Under the pieces are notes generated by a model. It worked only from the letters and a program-made list of their open reading frames with translations. It did no database searches and was not told where the DNA came from. Positions 3,488 to 51,395 of a DNA stretch of 64,000 nucleotides are shown piece after piece. The DNA is from Rhizaria sp. SCN 62-66 (lineage: Eukaryota). The first letter of the stretch is position 1; the number at the start of each line of letters is the position of its first letter. The translations under genes were made by a program, and so were the position numbers. The stretch is from contig MEDY01000209.1 of the NCBI GenBank assembly GCA_001724265.1, positions 1-64,000 on the forward strand, in the 5' to 3' direction.

Positions 3488-4292
3488 ATGGCTGATTTTG
3501 GCGAGGTACGTTTGTACACTTTGAGATCTATCTATCCTATTTTTCGCATTGCCTCCCATGCCCACTGAAGTGTCTACCAGGTCCCAGATATACTCGCTTC
3601 CTCGACAGTGTTCCTCTGTACTCTTCAGCTCTCCATATCTGTCATCAGCGTCATACGCCAATCTCTCGACGACCGTTAACCTTATGTTTCATGCACCCCA
3701 CTTGCCTTGATATCTTGCCCCGCTATGTAATCTTCAGCTCGTGCTCGTGCTCGGTGACATCCATATCCCTTCGCGCAAGGCCGAGATGCCCCCTGAGTTC
3801 AAGGACCTCCTTGCTCCCGGAAAGATGCAGCACGTTCTCTGCACCGGCAACCTCGTCTCCAAGCCCATCGAGGACTACCTTCGCACCCTCGCGCCCTCGG
3901 TCCACATTGTCAAGGGCGATCAGGACTCTGCCGCGAGCTTCGCCGACCTCCCCGAGCACAAGGTCGTCAAGATCGGCGAGTTCCGCATCGGCCTCTGCCA
4001 CGGCCACCAGCTGCTGCCCTGGGGCGACCCGGAGTCGCTGGCCAACCTCCAGCGCCAGCTCGACGTCGACATCCTTGTCACGGGCCATACGCACCAGAAC
4101 GATGTCTACGAGTACGGCAACACGTACCTCGTGAACCCCGGCTCCATCACCGGCGCCTACTCCGCCTTCCGCTCTGAGCTCACGCCCTCGTTCGTGCTCA
4201 TGGCCATTAAGGGCTCCAAGGTCGTCACGTACGTCTACGAGCTCAAGGATGGCGAGGTCAGCGTCTCCAAGTCCAGCTTCACCAAGAAGTAA
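3488..4292 (+). CDS. VPS29: Vacuolar protein sorting 29 (retromer/retriever subunit); exons 3488-3505, 3738-4292
   Basis: Spliced product MADFGE|LVLVLGDIHIP...LCTGNL...VKGDQD...HGHQLLPWGD...GHTH...NPGSITGAYS; GTACG...CAG phase-0 intron. Confidence 0.97.
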
Positions 4293-4709
4293 GTGCACAA
4301 CAACTGGTTAACAAACACTCTCTCTCTATCCATGGCAACGTTGTCTTGTTGACGACTGGATACTAATACTACGTAGTTTCGGCAAATGATGATAATAATA
4401 CTACTTACTATAGTCATACTAAAAATAACAAAACCAAAAACAAACAAATTCACCAACACTCAAACAAACGCGTTGCTTTGGACGAAATACTCCGAGCAGC
4501 AAACACGAATACAAAGTTGAATACAAAGCTCACAATCTCAAAAAAATATCGATCTTCTGTATTCCACAATACATGTAAACATAAACACTCGTATAGTATA
4601 GTATGCCAACTCCTATAGCAATCACATTTGTTCACTAAGTCTCTAGGTATGTACATTTTTACACTGTCGATCACTTCTCGACAGGCATCTTCACATCTGA
4701 TCACCACCG

Positions 4710-7700
4710 TTACATCACGGTGCAGCCCTTGTTCTGCCGCTTGGATGACTCGTAATCCGCCTTGGCGCGGAGTTGCTCCCGCTGCCGCCGCTCCCGCTCC
4801 TGTTGCTCGCGATCCTGGCGCCCCATCACCGTGCGCGCGGACTGGGGTCCGCCCGGCGGCGGTTGGGAGCCTCGAGCCGCCGCCGACTGCTGCTGCTGGG
4901 ACTGAGGGGTCGGATAGAGGGACTGGGAGCGCTGGACAGCAGGGGCTGGTCTCCGCTGCTGCTGCTGTTGCTGCTGTTGTTGCTGCGGTTGTTGCTGTTG
5001 TTGCTGAGGCTGCAGCCGGGGTTGCTGCTGCTGCTGCTGCGGCGGCGGCGGCTGCTGCTGCTGCTGCCACTGTTGTTGCTGCTGGTGGTGCTGCTGTTGC
5101 AGCTGATAATGCTCGGGGCCAACTCCCGACAGCTACAGCGGCAGACTCAGCGACTCCTCGTAGCTCGGCGGCGGCGGTAAGTGCTCGTGGAGGTTGCTGC
5201 CATCGCCACCAGCAGCGGCGGCAGCAGGGGCAAATGCGGCACCGCTGCCGTTAGCGATGTATGCGGCACTGCTCACGGTCGCGTACTAGGCCTGCATCTC
5301 GCTCGCACTCGCAAAGCCATCGTTGTTGTTGTGGTTGTTGCTGTAGACGCTGCCGCTGACACTCATCACGCTCATACTCCCCGCGCCATCATAGAACGCA
5401 GGCGGCTGCTGCTGTTGATTAGAGCCGACCGAGCTCGCGTGCACATACGACGGGGGCACTGCGTATGCCTGGCTGTTATATTGCGACTGCGCCTGGAGGT
5501 TCTGGTGGTACTGGTTCACGCTCGCCACACTCACACCAGACTGCTGCTGTTGCTGCCGCTGCTGTTGTTGCTGATACTGTTGCTGTTGCTGTTGCTGGTA
5601 CTGCTGCTGCTGCTGTCGCTGCTGGCACTGCTGGTGCGGTCGTTGCGAGTGCGCCTGCGCCTGAGTGCCATTGATCGCCTTGTGCTTCTCCCAGTCCCCG
5701 CGCCGCTGCTGCTGCACCTCGGTGATCTTGCCCCGGATCAACTGCGCGTGCTCGCGGCGGGACACCGTCGAGCCCGGCAGAGCGCGGCGCGCGCCCGCTT
5801 GCTCCGCCTCAGCGGCCGCAGCGGCCTGGGCGGGAGTCACGGTCACCAACTGCGCCTGCTGCGACTACTGCAGAGACGGAGACTGCTGCAGAGACTGAGA
5901 CTGCGGCTGTGACGGAGACGGTGACTGCGGCTGCGGCATGGACAAGGACGATGCGGGCACTGAGTTGTTGCGCATATTGTGATTGTTATTGTTGTTGTTG
6001 AAATTGTTGTTGCTCATATTATTATGATTGTTGTTAATGTTGTTGTTGTTATTGTTGTTGTTCGAGGCGCGTGCGCGCTCCATACTGCGCGACTCGAGCT
6101 CCGCTGCGGCCCTCGCAGCCTCGGCCTCGGCCTCTTCAGTGGGCGCAGCGGCCGAGTCGCCCATCAGGTACGCCGGGTAGAACGTACCGTCGCCGTCGCC
6201 TACGCCCTCCCACACGATGAGCTTGTCGATCGTTGGACGGGTGAACGGGGGCTCAGACTTGACGCCGGGACCCTGAGACTGCGAGCTGGCGCCGCCCGTA
6301 TTGTTGATGTTGAGGAACCCCATCTGCGCCGTCGTCAGCGCCTCCTCGGGAGCCTGCGACGTGGCCATGGCCTCGCTGGTGACGAGCGCGTAGAGGACGC
6401 CGCCGACCTTGTAGATGACGGAGAAGTGGTTGTTGCGGAACAACACTGCCAGCCCGCGCTCGGGAACGGTGCGCGTGAGCGTGCGTACGCCGTGCGGAGT
6501 CCACTGTTGCGGGTGATCCTCCAGAAACAAAGCCGCCGCCGTGGTCTCGAGGTCGCGCTGGAGGGCAACCTCACGGTCCCGCTGCTGCTGCTGCTGCTGC
6601 TCCCTCTGCTCACGGTCACTCTCACTCTGCTCTTGAGCTTTCTGCTGTGCTTGCTCCGGCTCCTGTTGGTCGGGCTCGTCGTGCTTCTGCTCCGGGTTCG
6701 CGTCCGTCTTGATTGAAAGCTTGTTGCGGTCGCTGCTGTTGTAGTCGATGTCTTCCCAGAAAGTCGGCGTCACCGGTTCGTCGTTGCTATTGCAATCGTT
6801 CGCAGCGTTGTCGTTGTTGTCCTCAGGGGAAGGAGCGACGCCATGCTCACGCATCGTGTTCGGCGAAAACGGGTCACAGCCGGCGAAGGGGTCTTCCTCT
6901 TCCTCACCAGACTTGTTACTACTCGTAATCGTATTCGTATTGGCACTTGCGGCAGCACCACTCTGCATCGTTGAGGTCGCCGCCATGAAGAAGTGCGCGT
7001 TGTCGTTGTTGTGGATCACCGCGGTCGGGTTGTTAATCACCGCGGCGAGCGACCGGGGCGACACCGCCATCGCCAGCGCCTGCTGCTGCTGTTGCTGCTG
7101 CCGTTGACCCGGGGGCAGAAGGGACTGTGACGCGCCGCCGGTCTGGGAGCCCGGCAGCGGTGGCGGGGGCGGAGACGCGTCCAGGAAGATCCCGCTGGCG
7201 GCCAGCACCATTCTGTCGTAGGTGAGGCCGCTGATGACGTCCACGAAGGGGTCGTCGGGGCTGGGCAGCCATGCGTGGAGCAGCGGCACGCCGCACAGCG
7301 CGAAGAGCGCCAGCGCGGGCGTGTCGTCGAAGGCCGCGACGTCGGTGAAGCGGACATTGATGTCCAGGCCGGCGTGCAGAGTGGGCAGCACGGACATGGC
7401 GCGCGAGAGGACCAGGGCGAAGACAGGCTCGGCGGCGGCGCGCGCGGCGTGAGTGCGGCGCAGGTAGTCGGACACGACCTCGACCAGCGTCGCGCCCGAG
7501 AGGCGGTCCGCGCTGCCGTCCCGCGCGGCCGCGGCGCGCACGACAGGGTTGTCGCCGCGCAGAGACACGAGGCCGCGCAGTGATAGGTGGTTGACGAGCG
7601 CGATGAGCGGACATGGCCCGCCCACTGTCTGCATGCAGATCGTGTGGTAAGACCCGCGGAAATAGACGAGCTTGGTGCGGTACAGAGACGCCGCAGTAGG

Positions 7701-7727
7701 GCCCTGGTCAGCGAACGCGGAGGACAT
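4710..7727 (-). CDS. MINDY-1/2 family deubiquitinase of about 1005 aa, containing three in-frame TAG codons and a C-terminal CaaX box
   Basis: Catalytic Cys motif QTVGGPCPLIALVN, GLDINVRF, LLHAWL, catalytic His motif LFRNNHFS. The frame continues through TAG at 5865, 5286 and 5133 to ...KRQNKGCTVM-TAA (4712-4710). The start may lie further upstream. Confidence 0.88.
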
Positions 7728-9209
7728 CTACGCGGTGTGCGGCGCCAGGGTAGGCGGTGAGAGAGGAAGTGACGCTGGAGAGGTTGAGGCTGTTGTTGCG
7801 TCGCTTGTCACTGCAAAACACTGCACTGGCTGGGTGGCGGGTTTTGCGGCTATGAAGCGGGAAAAGGTTTGTGTCGTTTAGCTAAACTGCGTTATGGGCC
7901 AAAAAAACGATGTTAGCCCAAGAAATGGCGCAAGTAAAAGGACAAACGAGGGAAACGTGGATGTTAGTGGGCGTGGATGGGGCTGGCGAGTGCAACGGAG
8001 TCGGGGTGGTTGCATTCACTCCTCGAGTCAAGTCGACGTAGTTCACTGAAGCTACTGTGGTTACTAAATGTTCTTTGTAAGCTCGGAAACAATGCAATAT
8101 AACACTAACTCTTCTTTTAAGACAATATACATGTGTCTCGTTTCGCTTAACGGTCAAACTGGTCCCCAGCACATCCCGGAAGATATCTCGATCGAGACGA
8201 AGATTGAATGGGTCGCGAAACTCGTTTGTGGTGGGTTTCAAATGTTTTAAAATGCCTCACCAGTATTTTGCATATCTGGCCTATACGTGCACAGCACTTC
8301 AAACCACATAGTATGCCTGTTATTTTAATAATATAACTGCTGTTTTTCTGAAAGATTTGAAGATAGCAGTCTCTCTATGCTGTAATTAACTTGTTTGAAT
8401 GGCCGTCACGCAGATATGACCATGATGCTTCGACATAGTTCAAGTCTGACAGCACAGGTTCAAAGGGTATCAATGCGATCGCGCTTGTGTCAGTATTTTT
8501 ATAGCCGATGATATGTGGCTGGGCAGTCTGGTAACAGTTTGCAACAATCGGACGTAGGCACGCTTCAACACAAGTATGCGTAACAGAAACTTGGTGTTTC
8601 CAACTCTGGGCACAGCTGGTGGGCGCATTTAGCAGCCACAAAACATAAAACGCTGGCACCGTATAGTAAAACCTGTTTTAAATGTACGTGTATGCCCACA
8701 TCACTATACGCATTGATCATACAGCTTGGTGTAAGCCGATGCACCATCTCAAGTTGGCACGGACCTTGATAAAGATTCATGAGAATAGCTCATTCTAATA
8801 TCACATTTTAGAAATTATATCTGTGTCTACATATGTAAACCATAATAAACAGGAAGTTTGCGCAGTTTGGTCTGAATTTAACAACATTAATGTCTCCATG
8901 TCACTTGTTTTGTGTTTTCGCAAGCGTGTTGACGAATGGCGTGACTGCAGCGGCCAGGTGGACGCGAAACAGCTCGGCTGACGCACTCCTTTTTGCAAGT
9001 TAGTGTTAGCCCTTCTTGGCCGTTGCAATAACATATCGTGGGTATTTATAGACGTATTGTGTATTACTTTATGTTGTATTCTTTTGATATACTGTAAATC
9101 GTGCGTCTTCGTCTTCAGCGCACTCATTTTCTTCGTCCGCACCCGACTCATATCTCGCACTCGTTGGCCAACCTTTACACGTGCCCAATGTGTGTTGTTC
9201 AGAAGAGCA

Positions 9210-9713
9210 ATGAAGCTTCTGCTTACTCTGCTCGTCTCGCTGCTTGCCGTGCTTACCGCGGCGGCCCGTCTCGAAGGCCCCACGATCGGCATCGACCTCG
9301 GCACGACGTACTCGTGCGTGGCAACCTACCAGAAGGGCCGCGTCGAGGTCATCACCAACGAGCAGGGCAACCGTATCACGCCCTCCGTCATGGCGTGGAC
9401 CGACGAGGGCGAGCGCCTTATCGGCGACTCTGCCAAGAACCAGGCCGCGAGCAACCCGCACAACACGGTGTTTGATGTCAAGCGTTTCATCGGCCGCCGC
9501 TTCAGCGAGAAGTCCGTCCAGTCCGACATGAAGCACTTCCCCTTCACGCTCAAGGGCAAGAACGACAACCCGTTCGTGCACGTTTCCGAGGGCGGCAAGG
9601 ACAAGTCCTACGCGCCCGAGGAGCTCTCCGCGATGGTTCTCTCCAAGATGAAGGAGATTGCGGAGAAGTTCGTCGGTGACAAGGTCGTCAACGCCGTCGT
9701 CACGGTGCCCGCC

Positions 9714-9744
<31 letters not shown>

Positions 9745-11735
9745 TCGACGCCGGCCGCATCGCCGGCCTCAACGTTATCCGCACCGTCAACGAACCCACC
9801 GCGGCGGCCATGGCGTACGGGCTGAACAAGAAGGCCGACGACGCCAAGATCCTCGTCTTCGACCTCGGCGGCGGCACCTTCGATGTGTCGATCCTGACGC
9901 TCGACGACGGCGTGTTCCAGGTAATGGCGACCTCCGGCGACACGCACCTCGGCGGCGAGGACTTTGATCAGCGCGTGATGAAGTGGATGCTGGACCGCAT
10001 CAAGGACAAGACCGGAAAGGACCTCAGCAAGAACAAGAGCGCCCTCGCACGGCTCCGTCGCGAGGCGGAGCGCGCCAAGCGCGCCCTGTCCAGCGACGTC
10101 AACACCAAGATCGAGGTCGAGGGCGTGCTTGACGGCGAGGACTGGTCTGACACCTTGTCGCGCGCCAAGTTCGAGGAGATCAACAAGGACCTCTTCGACA
10201 ACTGCCTCAAGCCCGTCGCTCAGGTACGAACGCAATTTGATATCAAAAGTCATAATGCTCTCTTTGATATCGACGAAGTTGTATTACTGTTTGAACAATG
10301 TGATATTGCTTGTTATTTATGTTTTACATCCAATGCTTTGCAATTCGTCGCTTATTGATGTCCGTATCTTTCCACTATAATTTATTTGCCGGTGCGTTTC
10401 ACGAGTACAGGCGCTCAAGGACGCCTCCGTCGAAAAGGACGAGATCGAGGAGATTGTGCTCGTCGGCGGCTCGACCCGCATTCCCTACGTCCAGACCATG
10501 CTCAGCAAGTTCTTCAACGGCAAGAAGCTCAACCACGAGGTCAACCCCGACGAGGCCGTGGCCGTTGGCGCCGCGCTGCAGGTACGCTTCAGCTCATTAT
10601 CGCTTAGAATAACACATTCAGAATAACACATTCTAATAACGCATTACTTGTGTGCGCACGCATTGTAAGTATGTTTGCTTGTGGTTGCGCGCACAATGAA
10701 TGGCTAATTGAATCTAACTTCCCTACTCTTGTCATATTTGTTTCCTTGTTGCTCTCGTCTGACTTTAGGCTGCGATCGTCGCCGGCCAGGCCCAGGATGA
10801 GGTTGCTGACTGGCTTCTGCTCGACGTTACGCCCCTTACTATTGGCCTTGAGCTTAGTGGTGGCGAGTACATGCGTTTCATTGAGCGTAACACCCCTGGT
10901 ACGTGCTTGCAGTATCTCATATCTGTTCGTCACTCAAAAGCTGTTTCTAGTGTCTCACCGAATTGTATTTCTATCTCGTGATATTTGGTTCGTTTTTGCC
11001 TTGATCTTAGTCCCCGTGACCAAGGTGCGCCACGTGACGACCGAGGACGACTATCAGGACTCGATTCCGATCCGCGTCTTCCAGGGCGAGCGCCCCAACG
11101 TGCGCGACAACGTGCTGCTGGGTGAGTTTGACCTCGAGGGCCTGCCGCCAGTCAAGCGCGGCATCCCCGAGGTCGAGGTCACGTTCGCGATTGACTCCAA
11201 CGGCATCTTGCACGTCTCGGCGGTCGACAAGGCGACGAAGTCGTCCGGCGCCGTTACCATCACGGCTGACCGCAACCGTCTGTCCGAGGCGGACATCAAG
11301 CGCATGATCAAGGACGTCGAGGTCAACGCCGAGAAGGACCGTCTGTGGCAGGCTGCGGTGGACGCGCGCCACGAGCTGGAGCACTACATCTACTCGCTCC
11401 GCAACGTTGTCGAGGGCGACTCCAAGGGCAAGAAGGCCGGCAAGGGCAAGGGCGACGACAAGGACGGCGATGCGAGCTCTCGTGTCACCGAGGCTCTCTC
11501 CAAGGGCGACATCCTGCGCGTCAAGAAGGCCATCCACGACGCCACGCAGTTCGTCGAGGCGGACCGCGGCGACGCTGCCGGCGGGCGCAGTGCGGAGGAG
11601 TACAAGGCCAAGCAGGAAGAGGTCGAGGCCATCTGTGGGCCCATCATGGCCAAGCTCTACGGCGGCAAGGGCGGCGACCGCGGCCGCGGTGACGACTACG
11701 AGGACGACTCTCGTGGCTACCACGACGAGCTCTAA
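9210..11735 (+). CDS. ER Hsp70 (BiP/GRP78-like, divergent); exons 9210-10223, 10411-10581, 10769-10898, 11011-11735
   Basis: Signal peptide [81 protein letters not shown]-terminal HDEL; three GTACG...AG introns that preserve frame. Confidence 0.96.
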
Positions 11736-14785: not shown

Positions 14786-15589
14786 TGATAGTCGGTGCTT
14801 ACGTCCGTCAGGCGGGACGAGGTGTTTGAATCCAAAAGGACAACAACGCTTTCTATCAAATTGTTAAATTCCTTGCGAATAATATGTCACGGGCACGCGC
14901 TGGCACAACAAAATAAAAAGCAGTCAGCCCTTCATCTCGGTGAGAGGTCGGCTCGGTAACATCACATGTGGTCAGAACAAAAAATACGAGTTTACTCTGC
15001 ATATATCTGAGTCAGCTCTAAAAATAACTCGTCGTGATGCTGTCTAATATGCATTTCTACCTTGATATGCAAGCTGTGACTGAATAAAGTAGTGTTTTGG
15101 TGTATTTTTTGTTGTTTTTGTTAAATGTTTTCTAAAGATGACTAATAGACCGTGGCGTTGTCGTTCGAACGCACCACCACGACAGAATACATAATATTAT
15201 ATGGAACAGGTTTGTTGCCCGACAGCAGCGACGCAACGTACAGAACCAAGCCGAGAGCAAAACAGCCTCACTCACATGACACAGAGGCTTCTTAAACACT
15301 CTGCTCTCTCATAGTAACAAGCTGGTTACGCACGCACGCAGACGCTGCGCTATCGAGCAGTGTGCTCCGCAGCGGGCGCCCCCGGCGGCTGCAAACGGCA
15401 GACCGGGCGGGGGCTCGCGAGCTGTGGAGCGGGGGCGGGAAGGGGCGGTGCGTGGACAGAGCGGCCGCAGGCTTAGACTGCGGCAAGACCCTGAGACGCT
15501 TCAGCACCCTTCTGGGAAAACGAAACGCGGAAAAGTAGACGAAAAAGAGACAATTTGGGGAGCTCCAGCGAGCGCGCACGGCGGCGCGC

Positions 15590-17717: not shown

Positions 17718-18283
17718 AAGATAGGGCGCAAGAAGGGTGAGGCTGAGGGGAAGAGCGGGCGCGCGGTGAGCGCGTTGTGCTGTCCAGCAGATTCAAGGTG
17801 ATGACTTGCTCTGTCGTGGGATATATCACGAACAGTGAAGATTATACTAGTGAAAATAGTTATATAGTATGTTCAAAAACAATAAACCGGTTGTTTACAG
17901 TCAAACTTTTTCCATATGTATTGTGAAATAAACCGAAATGTGTCTCAGCCACAAATCGTTTTTTCGCCGTGATGACGTAGAGCCGAGGGGCGAAAGTCAA
18001 CTCTACGGTGTTGCGAGAGCGGTCTGGGTCCGGAGAAAAACCGTATTGATGGAACGACCAACTTGGTCCGGAATCCCCGGGGATTTATTATAAGATACTA
18101 GACTTTCGATACATTCCGTACACGTTATCAAATGCATATTATGCAGGAGCGCAGACCCCTGCATTCAATGCCGGAAAATTGCTACCCCCTCTCCCCTCAT
18201 GCCACCATCCTCTCTTAACCGTTGTTTCCTGCTCTTGTCCGTCACTCCACACTTATATATCGCACACCGCAGAGTTCCTTGCT

Positions 18284-21200
18284 ATGTCAACGGCAGAGAA
18301 CGCGCCTTCTTCAGGCGATAAACCCACTGCGTCGCAGAGCGCTGCTGCTCCTGCGCCGCACGACGTTGACGCTCCCACCTCCACCGCCGCGCCGACGTCC
18401 ACCTCCGCGGCTGTCCCGGCGGTGAACGCGGCCGACATGCCCCGGAACGCTTCTTCGCTTGCTGCGCCTGAGGAGGTAGATGCGGAGGAAGAGCGTATCC
18501 AGAAGCTCATGCTCAAGTACCCGCGTCCCGCCTACTTCGACCAGGACGGCAACGATGATAACCCGGAGGAGCGCGCCAATATCTTCTCCATTTGGTCGCT
18601 CCAGTACCTCTCCGATGTCGTCAGTATCGGTTTCAACCGTCCCGTTATGATCTCGGACATGTGGAAGATCAGCAAGGAGCAGAACACCGCTAACGCTGCC
18701 CCTGCGCTCGAGGCGTTGTGGCTCGACAGGATCGCCAAGGCCGATGAAGAGAACATTGCTAAAGTACGGGAAACGACTCAACCTCATTAAAAAATCAATA
18801 TCCCAACCGATTCCTTGCAGTTTCTTTTACATCAACTGTATACCTACAATATTGTATTATTTATGTCTTCTAACTTCCTTATTTTCTCTGTGTATCTGCA
18901 TCTCCTCGACTCTGTTAACGCAGGGCTTCCCCCCGGTGAACCCCGACCTCAACAACCTCACGCCCGAGTCCCGCAGCACCCGCATGAACTCCATGGGCAG
19001 CCGCAGCGACGCTTCGCGCCCCGCTAGCGGCTCCATCTCCGGCACCGACAACGTCGGCGCTTCGACCTCAAACAGCACCCCCGGCGCGTCCACTGGTGGC
19101 GCCCCCGGCAGCGGTACGGACGGCGACAAGCCGCCCGAGCGCATCGAGCCGAGTCTGTTCAAGTCCTGCGTGGCGCTGATGACGTGGGACATGGGCAAGA
19201 TCTGTTTCCTCCAGGCCGGCATCCGCGTCGAGCAGATCTACGAGTCCGTCGTGCTCGGCTACCTCCTCTCGTGGCTTGCCACCGACTCGCCCGTCCCGGG
19301 CTTCGTCGAGGAGGAGTTCTACAAGGGCTTTATCTACGGCATTGGACTCGTGCTCATGTACGTCGGACAGAACGTGTGCAACAACCGCTCCTACTCGGTC
19401 GGCTTCCACGTCTTCTGCACCATCCGCTCAGCGCTCAACGGTATGATTTACACCAAGGCCATCAAGGTCGCTTCCGTGGACGCCGCCAACGACGCCGGGC
19501 AGCGCACCGGCGTTTCTGGCGGGCCCATGATGGGCGGTGGCGGCGCTGGTGCCGGCAACAGCGGTCAGATCGTGAACCTCATGTCCGTCGACAGTGAAAA
19601 GGTCGGCATGATGTTCTTCATGGGTCTCAACGTCGTCTTCATCCCTGCACAGCTCGCCGTCATCATCTATTTCATCTATGAACTCGTTGGTGTCGCCATT
19701 TTTGCCGGTCTCGGTGTGATCATGATCATTCTTCCCCTGATCTTCTTCATCATGCTCTTCATGGGGTACGTTAACACGTCGTCAACACGTCGCAATATCA
19801 CTATGAAACTTGACTTTTTTTTAGTAACAACTTATCTTATATCACCTTTCCTTTTGAAAGCAACGCATATGCGTATATGTCAACTTAATTTCTCATCATA
19901 TAACACATTTCTTACGTTCTGTTCGCGTACAGTCGTTTCATGGTGAAGCGTGCAATCTTGGGTGACTCTCGCGTCAAGCTCACCAACGAGCTGCTGCAGG
20001 GCATCCGCATTGTCAAGTTCTACGCCTGGGAGTTTTTCTTCGAGCGCCAAGTCGAGGCCATCCGCGCCAACGAAGTGCACGTGCTGTTCCAGACCTCGAT
20101 CGTGCAGATGATCATGACCTTTTTCTTCTCCATCGCGCCCGCACTCATCGCCGCCGTCACCTTCTCCGTGTTCGCCGCGCTTGAGGACGACATGAACCCC
20201 GTAATTGTGTTCCGCACGCTCGCCCTCATCAACTCGCTGCAGGCGCCGCTGATCCAGCTCCCGGCGTCGCTGGCCAACATCATGATGGGCATGATCTCCA
20301 TGGAGCGCATCCGCCAGTTCCTGCTGCTGCCCGAGCTGACCTCGATGCGTGCGCTCACCTCCTCGGGCCCGCGCGACGCCGCGCAGAAGGCCGAGATGGC
20401 GGCGCGCATCGCGGACCCCGCGGTGATGCTCCCGCTCGACGTGCGCTCGGGGCGCGTGACGCTCGCCGCCACCGATGCTGCCGCGGCGGCCGAGGCGGAG
20501 CGCCGCGCCAACCCCGAGCCTGGAGACCTGGTCGACGGCGCCGTGGCGCTGTCACGCGACTCAGAGAACGTGTTCGAGCTCGACGAGTGCGCCTTCTCTT
20601 GGGAGATCCCCTCGCTGCCCGCCGGCCCCTCGCGCGGCGGCCGCGGCGGCGGCGCTGCCGGTGGCCGCCGGCCCCCGCGCGGCGGGCTGGTCGGCATGGG
20701 CCGCGCCAAGCGCGTGCAGGTGCTCAACAACGTCACATTCCACGCGCCCCGCGGCAAGATCACCGCCATCGTCGGTCCCGTCGGCTGCGGCAAGTCCTCT
20801 CTCGTCGCCGGTCTGCTGGGCGAGCTGACCAAGCTGCGCGGCACTGTGCGCAAGGACTTTTCCATGTCGCTGGCGTACGTCTCGCAGTCGGCGTGGATCC
20901 AGACCATGTCTATCCAGCGCAACATCCTTTTCGACACGCCGCTCGACTCTGAGGACAAGCGCGAGCGCTATGAGCACACGATCGACGTCTGCGCGCTGCG
21001 CCCCGACCTTAAGACGCTTGATATGGGCGATATGACCGAGATCGGCGACCGCGGCATCAACCTATCCGGTGGCCAGAAGCAGCGTGTGTCGATTGCGCGC
21101 GCCGTGTACGCCGACGCCGACGTCGTCATCTTTGACGACCCGTTGTCGGCCGTCGACGCGCACGTCGCCGAGCAGATCTTCTCGCAGTGCATCGAGGGCG

Positions 21201-24200
21201 CGCTCGCCGGCAAGACGCGCATTCTCGTCACCAACCAGCTCCACTTCCTCTCGCGCTGCGATAACATCTGCGTCATGGGCCAGAGCTTCGACGACACCTT
21301 CGAGCCCGCCGCGGCCGCTAACGCTGCAGCGAGCGCCGCGGCCGCCGCCGGCAACGTCGCCGGCGCCGTCGCTCTTAGCCCCATGACCGCCGCCCCCGGC
21401 TCTGGCCCTGCTGCTGGCACGCCCCCGTCTGCGCCTCTGCTCGTCAACGCCGCCGCGGCCTCCCCCGGCTCCGGCGCCGGCCCCGGCCGTGGCCCCGCCT
21501 CCGGTCCCGGTGCTACTGCTGGGCCCGCTGACGGACTCCCCGGCGCGGGCCCGTCGGGCAACGTGACGGGCGCGCCGCAGCGCCGCATGATCGGCCACAT
21601 CGCGGAGCAGGGTACGTTTGCGGAGCTGCTGGCCAACGGCGCCGTGCTGCCGGGGCTGTTGCAGCAGTACTACTCGTCGCTGGAGCGCCAGGCCGCCGAG
21701 GAGGAGGCCGCGGCCGCAGAGAAGGCCGAGCTGTTCGCGCACCCAGCGGACCTGGCCAAGGCCGCCGCGGGCGGGGAGTCTGGGTTGCTCAAGGCCTCGG
21801 CCCCGGGGCCGCTGCCGGCGATTGTGCTCGAGACGCCCACGCACGTGCTGTCGCAGGAGGAGCGCGAAGAGCTCGCGCGCACCGTCGAGCGCCGCCGCTC
21901 CGCGTCCAACGCCGACATCGCCACGCCCCACGTCGACACCGGCGCTGGCGCAGACGCGACTCACGGACGCGCGTCCGCGCACGGACACGCGCTCGCCGTC
22001 AAGGACATGTCTCTGCTGACTAGCAACACCACCCTGGGTCACACACCGTCCGCGCCAGCGCCCGTCGTGTTGAGCGCGGGCGCGCGCCGCGAGCATGAGA
22101 GCATGCCGTCCCCGGACACGCAGGACAAGGAGGAGGCGCAGCACCAGGCTGAGGCCGCGCAGGCGGCGTCGATGAACAAGGTCGCCCGCATTGGCGGCGG
22201 GCTCCGCAAGGGCCAGCAGATCACCGACGAAGAGCTCAACACCGATAAGGTGTCGTGGGACGTGTATTTCTATCACTTCCGCACCATGGGTTCGGCGCCG
22301 ATGATCGTCGCGCTATTTGTGACGACGCTTCTGTCGCAGGCGGCGCAGGCGATCATGTCCATCTGGCTGTCGTGGTGGTCCGACGACACGTTCGGCGAGT
22401 CGATGCAGTGGTACCTCGACCTCTACCTCATCCTGCTCGCCTGCCTCGCCGTGCTCACACTGCTTCGCGGCTTCACGTTCGCCGTTGGAAACGTCAACGC
22501 CAGTAAGTACTACCACCACCGTCTGCTGCGCGTCGTGCTGCGCGCGCGCTCCGTGTTCTTCGACACCACGCCGGTCGGCCGCGTGCTGAACCGCTTCTCT
22601 AAGGACATCGACGCCGTCGACAGCATGATCCCGAGCATGCTGCAGCAGGTCCTCACCATGGCTTTCTCGCTCCTCGCCTCGGTCATCACCGTCTCGATCA
22701 TTATCCCGTACTTCACCATCGGCCTCGTGTTCATCATCGTCGTCTTTATCATCCTGCACCAGTACTACAGCGCCGCCGCGATCCAGTTGCAGCGCCTCGA
22801 AAGCAACACGCGCTCGCCGCTGTTCCAGCACTTCTCGGAGACGATCAAGGGCATGACGACGATCCGCGCGTTCCGCCGCATCGAGTCGTTCCAGCGCCAC
22901 AACTTCGCCCTCAGCAACATTAACACCAACATCCTCTATTGCACGCGTCAGATCTACCGCTGGGGTGGCCTCCGCATCGGACTTCTGCAGTCACTCATGT
23001 ACGTAACATTAAGCAACGTCGCCAATCACTCCTTCTTATGTTATTGCATGCATGCGTCGGTGTAATCTTCTTTTGTTGTATATCTCACACCTTTTTCTCG
23101 CCTCCCTATTCTTTCGCCTCAATTCAGGCTCCTCGTTGCCGTGCTCGTCATCGTGCTGACCCGTGGCGACCTCGCCACCGGTCTGGCCGGCTCCGCGCTG
23201 ACCTACATCCTCTCCATCGGCAACACGATGGGTTTCCTCGTCATGATGGCCATCGAGCTCTCGAGCAAGATGAACTCGATCGAGCGTCTCAAGTTCTACA
23301 TGTTCGGCATCGAGTCCGAGCCCTCGCTGAACCACGGCGTGGACGACCACGAGCCCGCCGAGGCTTGGCCGCAGCTCGGCGTGATTGAGTACAAGAACGT
23401 CTACATGCGCTACCGCCCCGAGCTGCCGCTCGTTCTCAACGGTCTCTCGTTCACCATCCAGGTACGCGGAACAACTCTCTGTGTGAACTAAGTTAATTAT
23501 CCCTCACTGCTCACAACATTTACTAATAACTATTTCATGGCATGTATACTCACACTCGTCTCATGTTTTTCTTGTTTTTTCCAACGCCTTCACAGGCTGG
23601 TATGAAGATCGGTGTCGTCGGCCGCACCGGCTCCGGCAAGTCGTCCCTGATGATGCTGCTGATGCGTCTTTACGAGATCGAGTCTGGCCAGATCCTGATC
23701 GATGGCGAGGAGATTTCCAAGCTCGCATTGCACCGCCTGCGCGGCTCCATCGGCATCGTGCCGCAGGAGTCGATCATGTTCTCCGGCACGCTGCGCGAGA
23801 ACGTGGACCCATTCGGACACTTCACCGACGACGAGATCTACGACGCCCTGGACCAGGTCGCGCTCAAGGACTTCGCGCTCGGCCTCGCGGGCCAGCTCGA
23901 CAGCAAGGTCAAGGAGTTCGGTACCAACTTCTCCGTCGGCCAGCGCCAGCTCATCTGCATGGCGCGCGTGCTGCTCAAGCGCCCGCGCATCCTGCTGCTG
24001 GACGAGGCCACGTCCTCGGTCGACTCGGAGACGGACTCGCTGCTCCAGCGCGCGCTGCAAAAGCGCTTCAACGACTGCACTGTGCTTACCATCGCGCACC
24101 GGCTCAACACGGTCATGACCTCGGACAAGATCATGGTGCTCGATCAGGGCACGCTGGCCGAGTTCGACTCGCCGCAGAACCTGCTCAAGGGCACCGGCCT

Positions 24201-24318
24201 GTGGGAGGGTGACGTCGAGGACCCCAACGCCAAGATCGGCATGTTCGCCGCCATGTACAAGGCGTACCTTGCCAACAATCAGGAGAACACCAACAAGGCC
24301 GCCACGAAGGCTCAGTAA
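18284..24318 (+). CDS. ABCC/MRP-family full ABC transporter; exons 18284-18763, 18924-19765, 19933-22998, 23128-23461, 23596-24318
   Basis: NPEERANIFS lasso; GQIVNLMSVD; NBD1 GPVGCGKSS / NLSGGQKQR / IFDDPLSAVDAHV; FFDTTPVGRVLNRFSKD; NBD2 GRTGSGKSS / NFSVGQRQL / LLDEATS / IAHRL; four GTACG introns in frame. Confidence 0.96.
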
Positions 24319-29462: not shown

Positions 29463-31833
29463 ATGAGCTCTTCCTCTAGAACCTCTGGTGACAAGCCCGC
29501 CTCCGGTGCGCCCGCCGCGAGCCCGCACACGAGCGGTGAGTTCGAGGTCCCGAAGCCGCAGACGCCATCCAAGCTTCTCAAGAGCCCTGTGCGGCGCTCA
29601 CCCTCGCGCTCCCCGCACGTGGGGCCCTCGCCCATGCGCGTCGCCAAGCGCAACCGCGATGACGGCATTGTGACGGACCTGCGCCTTGACGCCGCCACCG
29701 CGCTGTCGCTGACGGCGCTGCCCGACAGCGCAGACCGCGCCCTGCCCAAGCGCCCCTTCCGCCCCTCGTTCGCCCCCATCGAGTACAGGTACGCACTAAC
29801 ATCTACCAAGAATATTCCAACAATATCAGTTTAACTTGCTTTCTTTTCTTCACTCTGTTTTCTTTTGTCTAATTCCTTTATTGTCCTTTCCTTACAACTC
29901 CTCTCTATTTCACCCCCTCCTCGTCCACGCGCACCCTCCCCTATTCCGCTCTGTCTACCGTTCTCTCCGCAACATCGCTTCTCGCATGGCTCTCGCCCGC
30001 ATCCCACTCTTGCCCGCGCTCGCAGCGAGGAGCAGAACAAGATTCTGGAGACGATGTGGTCGACAGCGACGGTCTCGAGCTTCCTGACGACGCAAAAGGC
30101 CGTCGTGATCGACTCGCACGCCTCGCTCGTATCGGCCTTCAACACGCTCGCGCGCCACGGAATCATGTCCGCACCCGTGTGGGACGCGCCCAACAAGCGC
30201 ATCGTTGGCCTGCTCGACTACCGCGACCTGTGCGCGCTCGTCATTAAGGTCCTCACCTCGGTGGTCACGCCCTGCTCACCGCTCCCGCTCTCCGCCGCCA
30301 GCTCCGGCGCCGGCGCCAGCGGCACTGTGCTCGCGGTCACGGCGTCGGGCGTGTCCCCGCACTCGTCCGCCGCGGCCTCCCCGCTGCTGCGCCCCGCCAC
30401 CACCGTCTCCTCCTCCTCCTCCACCTCCAGCAACAACAGCAGCAACTCCGCCATCACGGCCGCGCGCCGCCTCTCGCGCGCCTCGACCCCGACCGTGGAC
30501 CACAAGGAGCCCGCCGCGGCGACCGGCGCCTCCCCCGCGCCCTCCGCCTCTGGTTCCTCGGGCTCCTCGGGCGCGTTTACCTTCCCCGCCCCGCTGCCGG
30601 CCAGCAGCACCGCCAGCGGCGGCGGCAGCGGCGCGAGCGGCAAGTTCACGCTCGCGAGCGTCCTGTCGTACGCGCCCGCGGGGCTCGTCGCCGACTTCTC
30701 GCACAGGGACAACTTCTACTCCGTGCCTGTACGTCAATCGTCCCAGGTCAAAACAGTGCCAACGTCGCCACTAAGATGAATTATATCACCAAATTACTGT
30801 GTAGCCTTTTCTGACCTCACGATCCGATCAACGTTTTTTTATCAATCAGATCTCCCATTGATCATCTCGCTCACAACAACTCCACATCACTTCTTCGCCT
30901 TTCTCTCTCTTTCTCTCTCTACCCCGCCCTGTCTGCCACGCCCTTTCTGCTCTGCTTGCGCAGCTCACGAGCACGTTCCTGCAGGCGATGCCGTACTTTT
31001 CGATGGGCCTGCACCGCGTGTGCGTGCTCACGGCCGACACGGCGCGCGAGTTCGTCGGCGTCGTCTCCCAGTCCGACGCGCTGCGCCACCTCCAGAAGCA
31101 CCTCGACCAGGTACGTCGCTGCAGCTGTCGAGAATGACGCAAATATATCTTAAATTCATAACTTAATCACGAAGTATCGCAATCAACTGAAAGTCTAACG
31201 CGAACGAAAACGTGCTGCGTATCTCAGGTTCTTTCATCTCAAGCCAATCTTTAACATCAATCTCTACACGTTCTTCTTTTTTTTGTTATCACGACTGCTA
31301 CGCAGGTCTCGTTCCTGGCCGACAAGACCCTTGCGGAGCTGGGCCTGATCCCCTCGGCGCCGCTTACGGCCCCGCAGGACGCCTCGGTGCTGGAGGCGCT
31401 TATCCTGATGCAAGACAACGCCGTATCCTCGCTCGCGCTGGTCGACGGCAAGGGCGCCCTTGTGGCGAACCTGTCCATGACGGACATCAAGCACGTCTTC
31501 GCGTCTGGCCAGCTCTCGCTGCTGCAGCACCCGTGCAAGGACCTGATCCGTGAGGTGCGCCGCCGCCGCGACGAGGAGTCGCACTACGAGACCAAGGTGC
31601 CGGTGTTCCACTGCTCGCCGCACACGACCCTGCGCAAGGTCGTCGGCTCCATGGTCGCCACACGTACGCACCGCATCTGGGTCACGGCCACGCCCTCGCT
31701 CGAGCCCTCGGCGCCGATCGCCGTCGTCACGCTCACGGACATCCTGCGCCTGCTTACTCCCGCCACCGCGGTCAAGCTGCCCGCCGCGGTGCCCAAGAGC
31801 GTCAAGCCCATCAGCTTTGTTCCCGCAGTCTAA
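29463..31833 (+). CDS. Multi-CBS-domain protein (AMPK-gamma/SDS23-like); exons 29463-29788, 30026-30728, 30964-31110, 31306-31833
   Basis: AFNTLARHGIMSAPVWD...IVGLLDYRDL; GLHRVCV...FVGVVSQSD; VSSLALVDGKGALVANLSMTDIK; RTHRIWV...IAVVTLTDIL; three GTACG introns in frame. Confidence 0.88.
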
Positions 31834-36897: not shown

Positions 36898-39239
36898 ATG
36901 AGCACATACGTTCACTCCTCAGACGCATTCTGGGATGCTTACGAACGTGTCCACGGTACGTCGTCTTTCTTTGCTCCCTCTCGCCCACGCATCGTAACCC
37001 CGCTTTGTCACTGCATCTTTCTCTCGCAACCTCAATGTGACCCGAACCCCGACTCTCTCCTTACTAACACATCTTGCCTTCCCGCCCCGTCCTTTCTTCC
37101 CACTTCCCACTGCCCTTCCCGCAGGCCCCGTCGAGGACGCCCCCGCCGCCCCCGCGGGCCTCATCGGCCCCCGCATCGGTCCCTCCTACCAGGCCGCCCT
37201 GCCCCCGCTCCCCTCGCACTCCAGCTCCAGCGCGAGCTCCAGCTCTAGCGCCAGCGCCAGTGCCAGTGCGGGTGCTGCGGGGCAGGACATGACCGACGCT
37301 GACGACGCCACATCCCCCGCCAAGCGCTCCCGCAACGCCGCGAACGCCAACGGTGACATCAAGCCCAGTCCCGACTCTGCCGGCACTGACGCGGCCGTCG
37401 CGATCCCACCGCGGCCCGAGTCCCCGCGCGTGCTGTGGAGCCCCGCGGCGTACCGCGCCGTCGTTGCCACCGCGCGTGCCGCCGCCGCCGCGCCCAACAG
37501 CAATAGCAACAACAACAACGCTCGCGGCGGCTACAAAGACACTGGGAACAACAACGACGAGGACAGCGACGCCGACACGGCCGCGGCGCCCGGCATGGAC
37601 CTGTTCCCGCTCGAGCCCGCGAACGGCAACAGCGCCGGCACCAGCTCCAACGGCAACGGCAACGCTCCTGCTGCGGTGACCGAGACGGTGAACGGCGTGA
37701 CCGTGACGGCCGCCGACGCCGCCGCGGCCGCCGAGTCGCTCTCGCGCCACCTGGCGCTGGTGCGCGGGCTCGTAGACCCGCCACGCGACGAGCTGCTGCT
37801 CGAGGAGGCTCTGGGCGCGTGGCTGCCCGCGCGCTCCTCGAAACACTTCGCGGCCATCGTCGCCGCGCTGCCGCCCGCCGCGCGCGCCGCCGCCATCGCC
37901 GCCGCGGCCTCCGGGACGGCCGCCTCCTCCTCAGCGTACGCCGCCGCCGCCGCTGCGACCGCCGCCGCCGCTGCGGAGGCCGAGGCCGCGGCCGGCGGCG
38001 CGAGTGTCAAGGGCAAGGGCCGGTGGCCGCGCGTGGGCCGGCCGAGCCACGCTTCACTGGCCGCGCAGGCCGCCGCCGAGGCCGCCGCGGAGGCCGCCAA
38101 CGCGCGCGCCAGTGCGGTGGCCGCCGCGCTGGCCGCCAACACTCTGGCGGCCCGCAGACTGCAGCACCGGCCCTTCGGCAGCTCCTGCGAAGGCGACGAC
38201 AACAATCCCAGTTGCAACAGCAGCAGCAGCGGCAAAGCCGTGAACGCCGCCGGCGGCCGGCGCCGCCGCGGCAGAAGCGCGTCCTCCGCCGCCGCGGCCG
38301 CTGCGGGCTCCGAGAGCGACGAAGGCGACAGCGACGACGACGACAGCGACGACGACGGCAAGGCGCGCGCCCGCGAGTGCGGGCACCCCAGCTGCCCGCG
38401 GCCGCTATGCGCGGCCGCGCGCGACCTTGCATACGCGGACCCGTGGCTGGTGTCGCAGCAGCCCGTGCCGGCGCCCGCCGCGGCGGCCTCGCGCCCACTG
38501 ACGGCGGCGGAGCTGTGCGCGGCGCCGCTGGGCCACTGCAGCGAGCTGCGCGCGCTAGTGCTGCTGGCGAGCGAGGGCGCCGCGGGGGCCGAGGGCGCGC
38601 GCGCGCTGCTGCTGACGCGGCCGCGCCGCGAGGAGAGCGAACGTGTGCAGATCGACGACGAGTCCGAAGACGTGTGCTTCCAGTGCGGTGACGGCGGCAA
38701 CGTCATGATCTGCGACGCCAAGCGCTGCGGCAAGGTCTATCACCCGCTCTGCGTCGGGCTCGACAAGGTCCCCAGCGGCGAATGGCAGTGTCCGCGCCAC
38801 CGCTGCACCTTCTGCCACATGCCGGTCGGCGACGCCACTCGCATGTGCCAGGTACGCCGCGGTTTTCGTGAATGAAATTATATGTGTGAGTTTATTTAAA
38901 ACTAAAGCTATTTACTCGCTCTTTTTCCTTCTGATAACTCTCTTAAACTAACATTATGCTCTTTTTCCCTTTGTGTTTATCTCGACTTGTTTAGCGCTGC
39001 CCGACGACATACTGCTCATCGTGCTGCCCCGCTGAGCTGCGCCAGAGTTCGCTCTCGACCTCCCAGAACACTGAATCCTCGTCCTTCCTGTGTCTGCGCT
39101 GCGTGCGCAAGGCCCGCGCCAAGGACGGCGACGCCGCAGCCGACGAGGCCGAGGCCGAGGCCGCCGCCGCCGCCGAGGCCGCGGCCGCGCAGGCCCACGC
39201 CGCCGCCCAGGCCCGCGGCGGCGTCGCCGCTTTCTCCCG

Positions 39240-39317
<78 letters not shown>

Positions 39318-40530
39318 TGGCTCTGGCTCTGGCGCTGGCTCTGGCTCTGGCGCTGGCGCTGGCGGCGGCCGCGTCTCGGGCGCAGCAGGCGCGGCGATGG
39401 AGGACGTGGACGCGGCGGCCTCGAGCGCGGGGGCGCCGACGGACTCGGTGCTGACGGTGCTGCGGCAGCGCGTGTTTCTCTCGGACGTGGCGACGCTGCT
39501 GCGACAGCCGCTGTCTGACAGCCGGCTGCTCGAGGCCAGCCGCCGCGTGCAGGCCGCCGCGCCCTCGCTCAAGCACGCGCTCCGCGCCGCCGCGGCCGCC
39601 GACGCCGCGGGCACGGCCAGCGAATTCCGCCACAGCTGGGACGCCGCCGCCGCCGCCACCGCCACCGCCGCCGCCGCTGCCGCCGCCACCGCGGCTGCCG
39701 GCGCGAGCGCTGATGCGGATGCAGACGCCGAGGGCGCCGCCGCCGCCGCTGCGACGGGCATTCCCCCGGCGCCGACTGGCGAGCCTGAGGGCGTGGGCGC
39801 GGACGCAGGCGCGACCGCGGCTGAGGCTGCGGCGGCCGAAGCGGCTGCGCTGGTCACGGGCACTGGCGCGGGCGCGGGCGCCGACAGCGGCAGCAAGAGC
39901 AGCCCCGGCAGTTCGAGCAACAGCAGCATGAGCTCCACTGCGAGCGCCAACTCGAGCATGAGCTCCACCACCACCACCACCACCGCCGCCAGCGACGAGG
40001 AACGCCGCGCCACGCGCACCACCGCCGCCGCCGCCACGGCCGCCACGGCCGCGGACTCCTCCGCCTCCGGCGCAGCCGCTGCCTCGGGCTCCGCAGCGCC
40101 CGCGGCGACCGCGGCGGCGGGCGGCGGGTTGTCGCGCCTCATGGGCCCATCGGCCAACAGCAGCAGCGGCGGCGGGCCCGGCGGCGCCCCACGCGCGCTG
40201 CCGTGCCGCTTTCTCGGGCTGGCGCTCGAGAGCCTGGAGGAGCTCTTCGTGTGCGTGCACCTGGAGCTGGTCGCGCGCGGTGGGCTCGCGCACATGCTCG
40301 CCAGCGACAACTGGGCACCCGTGGCCGAGCTCGTGGCGCGCAACCGCGCGCTGCTGCCCAGCGAGGCCCCCTTCGGCCTCGGCGTCACGGAGATCGGCGC
40401 GGCCAACGCGGCCGGAGACGTCTACCAGGGCCCCGGCGCGGCCGAGGGCGGCGCGGGCGGCGGCCGCGGGGGCCGAGGCGGCCGCGGAGGCAGGGGGCGC
40501 GGAAGCACCGGCCGTCTGACGCTGATCTAA
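36898..40530 (+). CDS. Chromatin protein with ELM2-like region and PHD finger plus a following Cys/His zinc finger; exons 36898-36955, 37125-38851, 38995-40530
   Basis: [12 protein letters not shown]...VLWSP (ELM2-like); [51 protein letters not shown]...[12 protein letters not shown] (NSD-type PHD-C5HCH); C-terminal GRGG tract. Confidence 0.8.
39241..39360. repeat. (GGCTCC/GGCTCT)n coding repeat (Gly-Ser)
   Basis: Tandem hexamer array inside the last exon of the PHD gene. Confidence 0.85.
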
Positions 40531-49500: not shown

Positions 49501-50683
49501 CGGCGGCGGCGAGGCGCGTTACGACCGGCCGCGCCGCAGCAGCAGCAGCAGCAGCAGTAGCAGCGGCAGCGGCAGCGGCGGCGTCGGCTTTAGCTTCGGC
49601 CTCAGCCTCAGCCTTAGCCTTGGCCTCCGCAGCAGCAGCCTTGGCCGCAGCCTCAGTCCTGGCCCTCGCCTGGGCCTGGGCCTGGGCTTGCGCTTCGGCC
49701 GCGGCCGCCGCAGCAGCCTTGCGCTCTCGTCGCTCTCGCTCTCTCTGCTGTTCCAGCTCCTGCTCTCGCTCCCGCTGGACGTCCCTCGGCTCCGCGCCCG
49801 CCGCAGCCGCAGCCGCCGCCACTGCAGCGGTAGCCCTCGCGCCCGCGCCCGCGGCAGTGGCGGCACCTTCAGCCCGGACGCGCGCGGCGGCCGCGGCGGC
49901 CACGGCCCGATCGGCCTGGGCCGCCGCCGCTGCAGCAGCAGCCGCGCGCTGCCGTAGCCGCGCGACCTCGGCCTCCGCCTTCGCGGCCTCGGCGGCCGCG
50001 GCCTCAGCGGCAGCGGCAGCGGCGGCGGACTGGCGGGCGCTTGCAGTTGCCGCGGCAGCGTTGCTGCGGCTCGAGGGGCGGCTTGACTTGAGCGCGCTGG
50101 CGACTGCATGCACGGTGGCCGCCGCGCCCGCCACGCCGCCGCCGCTGCCCCCGCCGTGGCCTGCGCTCGCGCCCGCATTAGTTGCAGTGGCTGCAGTGGT
50201 GGTGGCAGTGGTGACAGCTGGCGTCTTGTGCAGGCGTGGGGCGCGGTCGCCGCGCGCGGCCACAATGCGCGCGTAGCGGTCCAGCGTCGACGCGACGCGC
50301 CCGTCCCCCGTGGCGGCGCTCGCGCTGCTGCTGCTGCTGCTACTGCTGGGGGTGGCGGTGGCGGCGGCTGTTACCAGCGTGGCGCCGGGCCGCGGCGGGC
50401 CCAGCGGCGCGCCAGCGCCGCCGCCGCCGCCACCGCCGGGTGGCGTGGCGGCAGCGCGGGGCGGGTGCGGGCGCAGCGCGGGCGCGCCTGTCGCGGCCGC
50501 GGAGGACGTTAAGGCCGAGACTGAGGCGGAGGTGGAGGCCGGGGCAGCGGCGGGCACGGCGGGGGCCACCAGCGCCGACGCCGCTGACGAGGGCAGGAAA
50601 TGCGACAGCAGCTGGTCCGTCGCGTAAACAGAGCCGCTGCTAGTCGTTGTAGGCCCTGAAGCAGGCGTAGGGCGGGACGCCAT
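46518..50683 (-). CDS. Large Ala/Glu/Lys/Gln-rich low-complexity coiled-coil protein; exons ~50683-47267, 46997-46518
   Basis: A frame of more than 1100 open codons joined by a phase-0 GTACG...TAG intron ([14 protein letters not shown]) to a terminal exon ending TGA. KAEAEA-type repeats. No family recognised; start uncertain. Confidence 0.65.
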
Positions 50684-51395
50684 CAGTGAGTGTGACTGGA
50701 GGGCTTGGGCGAGGTAACGTAAGGTTCTCTCGAGTGCTTGAACGAAAACAGGAGTAATGTGAAAGGTATACATCGTCAATGAACGTTTGATCAACTGAAC
50801 TAAATATAAAGAACCAATTTAATTTCAATCACCCTAATTATAATCGCAAATCCTGTGTTTGTACGCAGATATCTCGTTCACAAAATAAGTTTCCGTTGGC
50901 AACCAGCACTGCAAAATTTTTCCCCAGTTCGAGGCCGGGCCGATGCCTGGTTCGGAAGTGAGAATTCTCTGGCTGTTGATCGTCAGTCTTAATTCTGTCG
51001 TTTGCTTATGTTATTCTTGATAGTTTGACAAGTACTTCATGTAATTGTCACTCGTCCTTACGCTTTTGTGAGCTTCTCATGATGCTTTCTTTTTCACTCG
51101 ACGTCGACTGCTTCTGCCCCTGAGTCCCCCCACCGTTTCTAGCCATGTGCGCCAGCTTGGTGAGTGCTTTCGTGGCCAACGACATAAAATGCATAGCACA
51201 CTACCTTTTCTATCTATATTACTTGCTCACAGTCGTTTTCACCGCGTTCCCCCTGCTCGCACGCCCCCCGCAGCTTGCGGTTCCCCGCACTCCCCCCCGC
51301 GCACCTCCCTCCGGCCCGCCCCGCCCCCGCGCCCGGCGCCGCCACCTGCTCTGTTGCCCTCGCTCCGCCTCTGCCGGCGCCTTCCCGCGCGCTTG

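Follow-up and report, generated by a model that had tools for sequence, protein, structure and literature searches.

A MINDY deubiquitinase gene with three in-frame TAG codons and a possible reassignment of UAG to glutamine in Rhizaria sp. SCN 62-66

We analysed a 64,000-nucleotide stretch of DNA from Rhizaria sp. SCN 62-66 (assembly GCA_001724265.1, contig MEDY01000209.1, positions 1 to 64,000; hereafter the window), which carries on its minus strand a gene for a MINDY deubiquitinase whose reading frame passes through three TAG codons before it ends at a TAA. The best explanation of this frame, to which we give an even chance, is that the organism translates UAG into an amino acid, most probably glutamine (Gln), and that UAA and UGA terminate translation; use of TAG as a sense codon throughout the genome is hinted at, not proven. 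An earlier note, made from the letters of the window, had proposed such a code, and the positions that it gave were all correct, with the ATG, the three TAGs and the TAA in the same frame throughout. The parts of the gene are the following.

5868..7727, minus strand: MINDY open reading frame (ORF), codons 1-620, containing poly-N/poly-Q stretches and a large insertion of low complexity
5865..5867, minus strand: TAG1, codon 621, inside a local duplication, the other copy of which has CAG
5286..5288, minus strand: TAG2, codon 814, the G of which opens a donor-like GTACGC
5133..5135, minus strand: TAG3, codon 865, in the MINDY frame
4713..5864, minus strand: Q-rich tail, 384 codons in the MINDY frame
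5445..5456, minus strand: PPSY (in VPPSY), PPxY-type motif 1, residues 758-761, its function taken from general background
5160..5177, minus strand: PPPPSY (in LPPPPSYEE), PPxY-type motif 2, residues 851-856, between TAG2 and TAG3
4713..4724, minus strand: CTVM, a CaaX-type prenylation box, preceded by basic KRQNKG
4710..4712, minus strand: TAA, proposed true terminator, with a drop in guanine-plus-cytosine content (GC) directly after it

The ORF opens at the ATG at 7727 on the minus strand and runs for 620 codons to TAG1 (5867-5865). Its product matches the Pfam family PF04424 (MINDY_DUB) over residues 16-457, which cover positions 3-242 of the 264 in the profile, with E 3.5e-50 and a score of 171 bits where the cut-off is 27, and thus has the domain that membership of the MINDY-1/2 family calls for. 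In an alignment with two homologues, P0003 from Mortierella and P0004 from Branchiostoma, GPCPL (G37 P38 C39 P40 L41) and NNHF (N432 N433 H434 F435) were invariant, so that the Cys and His motifs of the family are present as well; the Cys of GPCPL and the His of NNHF are what we take to be the catalytic residues of MINDY deubiquitinases. Both the Pfam match and the three-sequence alignment indicate that the catalytic domain is split by a large insertion at about residues 185-400. No motif interacting with ubiquitin (MIU) was identified behind the catalytic domain, although no search aimed at it was made; in this comparison of three sequences, the LALxLQ-type stretches of the homologues aligned poorly. 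Immediately 5' of the ATG lies another in-frame TAG (7728-7730), and no in-frame ATG occurs within the 49 codons upstream of it; the start at 7727 is therefore valid under either code. When TAG is read as Q (NCBI translation table 15), the MINDY protein has 1005 residues from ATG to TAA, and the one unbroken frame from the ATG at 7727 closes at the TAA at 4712-4710 with ...DYESSKRQNKGCTVM. Standard-code gene callers split this protein into pieces of 620 and 186 residues, which are found in public protein sets (P0002 and P0127).

The earlier note had described a continuation of about 385 codons beyond TAG1 that contains two further TAGs, no TAA and no TGA; the tail has 384 codons, among them 77 CAG, 24 CAA, 2 TAG, 0 TAA and 0 TGA. 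Openness alone is not beyond chance, because the stretch is of low complexity and one plus-strand frame is equally open (stops over the tail in the six frames: 2, 13, 5, 2 in the MINDY frame, 12 and 5). Codon usage was evaluated with a log-odds table built from 9,179 codons of confident window genes. The MINDY frame scored +13.9 at 5864-5640, +27.4 at 5540-5289, +14.2 at 5285-5136 and +2.7 at 4945-4713, that is, in non-repetitive pieces of 75, 84, 50 and 77 codons. In all four it was stop-free and alone positive, the other five frames ranging from -3.5 to -39.8, and in a piece of only 7 codons (5132-5110) it was again the sole positive frame of the six (+0.2). The score was positive on either side of TAG2. 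Two CAG-repeat pieces gave the MINDY frame -5.1 and -12.2 and were outscored by another frame. Per-codon scores of the tail pieces reached 0.19-0.33, as high as in other window genes, versus -0.40 to +0.05 in the 300 nucleotides (nt) after 18 real stops of the window. The next in-frame stop came within 1-49 codons after 17 of these 18 stops, versus 192 codons after TAG1. A scan of codon scores for other stops flanked by coding sequence was too noisy to use, since besides the MINDY TAGs it mostly returned intron sites and frames antisense to known genes.

Base composition agrees with this picture. Window exons have a GC of about 0.62-0.78, and introns and spacers are AT-rich. In the next 120 nt, GC was 0.78 for TAG1, as against 0.41 for the TAA at 4710 and 0.30-0.59 for the 18 other stops; the high-GC block spans 4696-5959 and has its edge 14 nt beyond that TAA. 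GC at the first, second and third codon positions (GC1/2/3) was 0.69/0.42/0.81 and 0.83/0.42/0.78 in the tail, similar to the 0.63/0.47/0.82 of the catalytic part. We conclude from the frame-specific codon usage, with which the composition agrees, that the tail codes for protein in the MINDY frame or did so until a very short time ago, and the earlier description of the stretch as GC-rich and exon-like was borne out. A 194-nt GC-rich block (0.71; 15320-15513) was also observed downstream of the TAA of the gene for the 20-kDa subunit of complex I; it scored as non-coding in six frames, so short GC-rich 3' regions do exist in the window.

The tail also appears to carry the C-terminus expected for the MINDY family. 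Among 8000 scored candidates, three relatives were obtained at E <= 0.001, namely the protein itself and two others, and the latter were the only named homologues found (P0003, Mortierella, 35% identity; P0004, Branchiostoma, 32%). In each, the catalytic domain is followed by a long stretch rich in Q, and the protein ends in a CaaX box behind basic residues (...KSKEKCIIQ in P0003 and ...KKEDKCTIL in P0004); the Mortierella protein has, in addition, a PPPPAY near its N-terminus. The Cys of CTVM aligned with the Cys of CIIQ and of CTIL, and CTVM is reached only if all three TAGs are translated. An excerpt of a prenylome preprint (10.1101/2024.03.03.583211) gives the CaaX boxes of mouse MINDY-1 and MINDY-2 as CILL and CVIL. 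VPPSY, LPPPPSYEE and CTVM are present in the tail where the earlier note had placed them, and its view that a CaaX end is typical of the family agrees with these homologues. The predicted protein resembles MINDY-1/2 (FAM63A/B) in the MINDY_DUB domain and the Cys and His motifs and, if the TAGs are translated, would share the Q-rich linker and the C-terminal CaaX box; it differs from them in that its CaaX end requires translation of three TAGs and in that the insertion splits its catalytic domain.

Usage of stop codons in the neighbouring genes is consistent with a changed meaning of UAG. Eighteen other genes of the window were modelled by means of GC blocks, frame scores, splice sites and Pfam; they are a small sample and our own models. 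They end in 12 TAA, 6 TGA and 0 TAG, which upholds the earlier claim that UAA and UGA still terminate nearby and shows UAG unused as a terminator among the genes modelled. The last bases of these stops are as follows.

TAA ends: 3233, 4292, 11735, 12484, 15590, 17717, 24318, 31833, 32739, 40530, 54741, 59334
TGA ends: 28937, 30779, 41587, 46195, 46518, 55156

Several C-termini are supported by domains that run up to the protein's or the profile's end, namely those of BiP (HDEL), the 20-kDa complex I subunit, an Arf-family GTPase and the metallophosphoesterase, as well as those of the second ABC domain, AAA_28 and the phosphatase. If TAG made up 15-25% of the stops, a general range for GC-rich eukaryotes that was not measured here, the probability of 0 TAG among 18 stops would be 0.054-0.006. 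The ORFs that hold these genes have a GC3 of about 0.70-0.90, and yet TAA is the commonest stop. The only TAG that might have passed for a terminator, in the ORF at 42871-43812, was rejected because it lies inside an intron, behind a GTACGT donor, and the gene continues in the next exon. The apparent stops TGA 19946, 38875 and 47255 and TAA 53359 were likewise discarded as intronic or out of frame at splice junctions, and the genes were merged across them. The least certain of the 18 ends is that of the CBS gene at TGA 30779, which lies 27 nt beyond the GC drop and a CAG|GTCAAA.

TAG1 and TAG2 were confirmed in independent DNA. TAG1 lies in contigs without any difference from the window in runs X3 (5627-5971) and X5 (5627-5966; labelled RNA-Seq but flagged as probably DNA), and TAG2 does so in runs X3 (5155-5537) and X4 (5172-5375). 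A search of metagenome contigs with the 620-residue protein returned a single locus, L001 (3974 nt, metagenome collection), which shows no difference across 775 aligned bases, both TAGs among them. The four other runs yielded no CAG allele, and TAG3 was in none of the contig pieces listed. Since TAG1 and TAG2 are identical in contigs from other studies, they are not assembly errors. RNA evidence comes from the polyadenylated-RNA (polyA-RNA) run X7, which covers 6068-6467 and 7505-7826 in the catalytic part and only 41-47 nt (5861-5907) at TAG1; tail parts that lack RNA cover are uninformative either way. At 5861-5893, one X7 contig goes back 33 letters and adds 3, which may reflect a tandem duplication of 36 nt that keeps the frame and takes in TAG1, although this comes from a single 84-nt contig of depth 3.3 and may be a repeat artefact. 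A second contig of run X4 (3983-4253) has 12 listed differences from the window at 4013...4253, each in the third position of a codon of the metallophosphoesterase gene on the plus strand (3786-4292), which suggests a related strain or a paralogue under purifying selection in the same sample.

Several observations weigh against a change of code throughout the genome. The other genes of the window (13,721 codons, with 375 CAG and 60 CAA) and the 620 catalytic codons of MINDY contain no in-frame TAG, and within the 64 kb examined in-frame UAG was not found in many genes at conserved Gln columns. Were TAG distributed evenly over Gln codons, the chance that all three would land among the tail's 104 Gln-type codons would be about 0.006. 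None of the three sites stands in a conserved column of the alignment with P0003 and P0004, as the earlier note had also stated. Moreover, the tail had no relatives when 1.84 billion representatives were searched with HMMER: of four matches, two were the window's own fragments, and the other two were weak and of low complexity (E 1.5e-5 and 2.8e-4). X7 touches TAG1 only by tiny pieces, so that full transcription of the tail, and still more its translation, is only presumed. Neither a tRNA gene nor any Rfam match was found within the 64-kb window, and eRF1 is not among its genes. Reassignment, in sum, requires a rare type of code and strongly uneven use of the new codon.

Under the chief rival explanation, the code is standard, the gene was recently truncated by a CAG-to-TAG change at codon 621 and the 1.15-kb tail is an untranslated relic that has since gained two further CAG-to-TAG (or similar) changes. 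Truncation would leave the catalytic domain (residues 16-457) complete before TAG1, and it fits the absence of in-frame TAG elsewhere in about 14,300 codons. TAG1 is one C/T change away from its duplicated neighbour (TCTCTGCAGCAGTC / TCTCTGCAGTAGTC), and this CAG/TAG pair indicates that TAG1 derived from CAG by a C-to-T change; the duplication, which the earlier note had read as aligning TAG with Gln, is present, but the CAG origin of TAG1 is as compatible with an ordinary nonsense mutation as with a Gln codon. In so Q-rich a tail, 71-73% of the possible nonsense changes yield TAG, so that three TAGs of three have a probability of 0.36-0.38 under random nonsense changes, and slippage of triplet repeats preserves the frame, which makes the intact frame less telling. 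A relic would nevertheless have had to acquire three stops yet no frameshift, TAA or TGA, with the CaaX box and both PPxY motifs untouched and with codon scores equal to those of other genes. It would also need to be fixed in every run examined, no CAG allele having appeared in the four others, would make MINDY alone among 19 genes in having a long 3' region that is GC-rich and would leave the absence of TAG from the 18 terminators a coincidence. We consider this explanation unlikely, but by no means negligible; the confinement of the TAGs to the tail would be explained by a relic as well as by a young, rare codon in unconstrained polyglutamine (polyQ).

A leaky or context-dependent UAG that generally remains a stop appears improbable. 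It would yield a soluble form of 620 residues and a prenylated form of 1005, selection on the longer of which would keep the coding signature of the tail, and ambiguous codes have been described in abstracts. The nucleotides 3' of TAG1, TAG2 and TAG3 are T, T and C, pyrimidines throughout, versus a purine after 14 of the 18 real stops (G in 12), a weak difference that counts for reassignment and could also speak for leakiness. However, the three sites share no readthrough context, the missing TAG terminators would be left unexplained, and full-length product would be scarce behind three leaky stops in a row, unless these were suppressed so efficiently as to amount to reassignment. Least probable, in our view, is that unusual splicing or RNA editing keeps the TAGs from the ribosome, or that they are sequence errors. 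The tail is too sparsely covered by RNA for processing to be excluded, and TAG3 might act as a YAG acceptor. TAG2 is overlapped by a GTACGC, so that the earlier assertion that no GTACG donor exists was not quite true. The only pairing tried, a splice from 5286 to 5133, would remove 154 nt and lead into a frame that holds 12 TGA; TAG1 has no usable pair of donor and acceptor. The introns of the window are of another kind: seven of eight donors are of GTACG type and one is GTGCGT, usually preceded by CAG or GAG, and the introns are AT-rich, about 109-250 nt long (low-GC gaps), with CTAAC-like branch sites in several and acceptors ending in AG. Apart from the GTACGC at TAG2, no such features were seen in the tail, which is uniformly GC-rich. 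Two joints in the contigs, 5227-5881 and 5231-7430, were rejected as introns because their sides are just 19-21 nt long and lie in repeats. An 84-nt polyA-RNA contig matches 5861-5901 without difference, although with a margin of only 4 nt this is weak evidence against processing, and sequence errors are opposed by the agreement of X3, X4, X5 and L001 on TAG1 and TAG2.

Reassignment of UAG thus remains the explanation that we favour. The earlier proposal that UAG is a sense codon is supported in part: the coding tail, the CaaX end, the TAGs confirmed in other DNA and the lack of TAG terminators speak for it, while the 13,721 codons of other genes lend it no further in-frame TAG. Readthrough by ribosomes, the Gln identity and the mechanism are what we infer. 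If UAG is read as Gln, the MINDY protein would have, behind its catalytic domain, a disordered Q-rich linker that carries the two PPxY motifs, and would close with a polybasic CaaX end for prenylation. The decoding tRNA would be a tRNA-Gln(CUA) derived from tRNA-Gln(CUG), by analogy with the argument in an excerpt of Pánek et al. 2017 (PMC5304391), and eRF1 would presumably no longer recognise UAG. The codon would be both rare and young, seen so far only in polyQ sequence that evolves quickly and would tolerate changes from CAG to TAG. We suggest tentatively, at rather below an even chance, that the organism, an uncultured GC-rich eukaryote that recurs in metagenomes from wastewater and bioreactors, has freed UAG from termination independently and is at an early stage of codon capture, in which UAG has gone from gene ends, where UAA is favoured in spite of a GC3 near 0.85, and has re-entered coding sequence only in fast-evolving polyQ tracts. 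As to the amino acid, Leu is possible at LPL*LSG, and the CAG/TAG duplication at TAG1 would favour Gln.

Among known codes, NCBI table 15 is formally equal to the one proposed, with Q at the three TAGs, but it is a formal table and not a related organism. Amoeboaphelidium protococcarum, a non-ciliate eukaryote, can occur in cultures and reactors. It reads both UAA and UAG as Gln according to an excerpt of Pánek et al. (PMC5304391), unlike the present case, in which TAA terminates 12 of 18 genes, including BiP with its HDEL-TAA; another excerpt of this paper treats the attribution of table 15 to Blepharisma as an error. The closest likeness is to Iotanema spirale, for which the excerpted text (PMC5304391) reports UAG as Gln with UAA and UGA as stops, and UAA as the predominant stop. 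The proposed meanings are the same, as is the implied mechanism, a tRNA with a CUA anticodon that cannot read UAA, and UAA as the commonest stop in spite of a GC3 near 0.85, which is odd in itself, matches this usage. However, the Iotanema code rests, in that account, on transcriptome-wide evidence, and ours on three sites in one gene and 18 stop codons; and the present organism is, as far as can be told, not an anaerobic fornicate like Iotanema but a GC-rich, intron-bearing wastewater eukaryote, in which UAG would be very rare. The rhizarian exLh, reported in the same paper to read UAG as Leu, and ciliates in which UAG alone has a new meaning or UAA and UAG differ in theirs (Glu/Lys; abstracts of PMC10553269 and PMC11687900) also have UAG uncoupled from UAA, as proposed here, and differ in the amino acid. 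As far as the excerpt of PMC5304391 and the ciliate abstracts of 2023/2024 go, nuclear codes that separate UAG from UAA have been found in very few lineages.

DNA of the window, at least in part, was found in bioreactor, wastewater and activated-sludge metagenomes (16 of the 17 rows listed, from 10 studies), and four of these rows contained half or more of the sampled window words. The best matches of both BiP (84% and 71%) and the ABC transporter (49%, 47% and 45%) were metagenome proteins, and the named matches of the two came from groups as different as animals, algae, amoebae and Mortierella-type fungi. The 84% match of BiP belongs to the P0009 cluster, which has one member on a 17.6-kb contig. 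Genome contigs gave no match to MINDY or to BiP exon 1, viral contigs gave none, and the window holds only low-complexity repeat families, with no dispersed repeat usable as a probe. The genes merged across apparent stops are the following.

18275-24318: ABC transporter, single gene, merged across 19946
to 40530: PHD gene, merged across 38875
to 46518: gene merged across 47255
to 54741: tyrosine-phosphatase gene, merged across 53359

The BiP gene (9210-11735) has three introns of the typical signature and an HDEL-TAA end. The CBS-domain genes 29463-30779 and 30988-31833 are plus-strand neighbours and may be tandem duplicates. Large genes in 36998-40530 and 46518-50794 consist mostly of Ala-, Gly-, Ser- or Gln-rich low-complexity sequence and have no Pfam match or a small domain only (a PHD finger located where the first exon ends).

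If the reassignment were wrong, the locus would be merely a truncated deubiquitinase gene of little interest. If it is right, this organism would be an independent further case of an Iotanema-type code, which would be useful because the codon is still rare and stop usage is already skewed; on the early-stage reading it would show, in nature, a nuclear genome caught while capturing a stop codon. The origin of the tRNA(CUA), the change in eRF1 and the re-entry of the codon would be directly open to study, as genomic contigs exist, one of them of 143 kb, and this lineage may speak to how a split between UAG and UAA begins.

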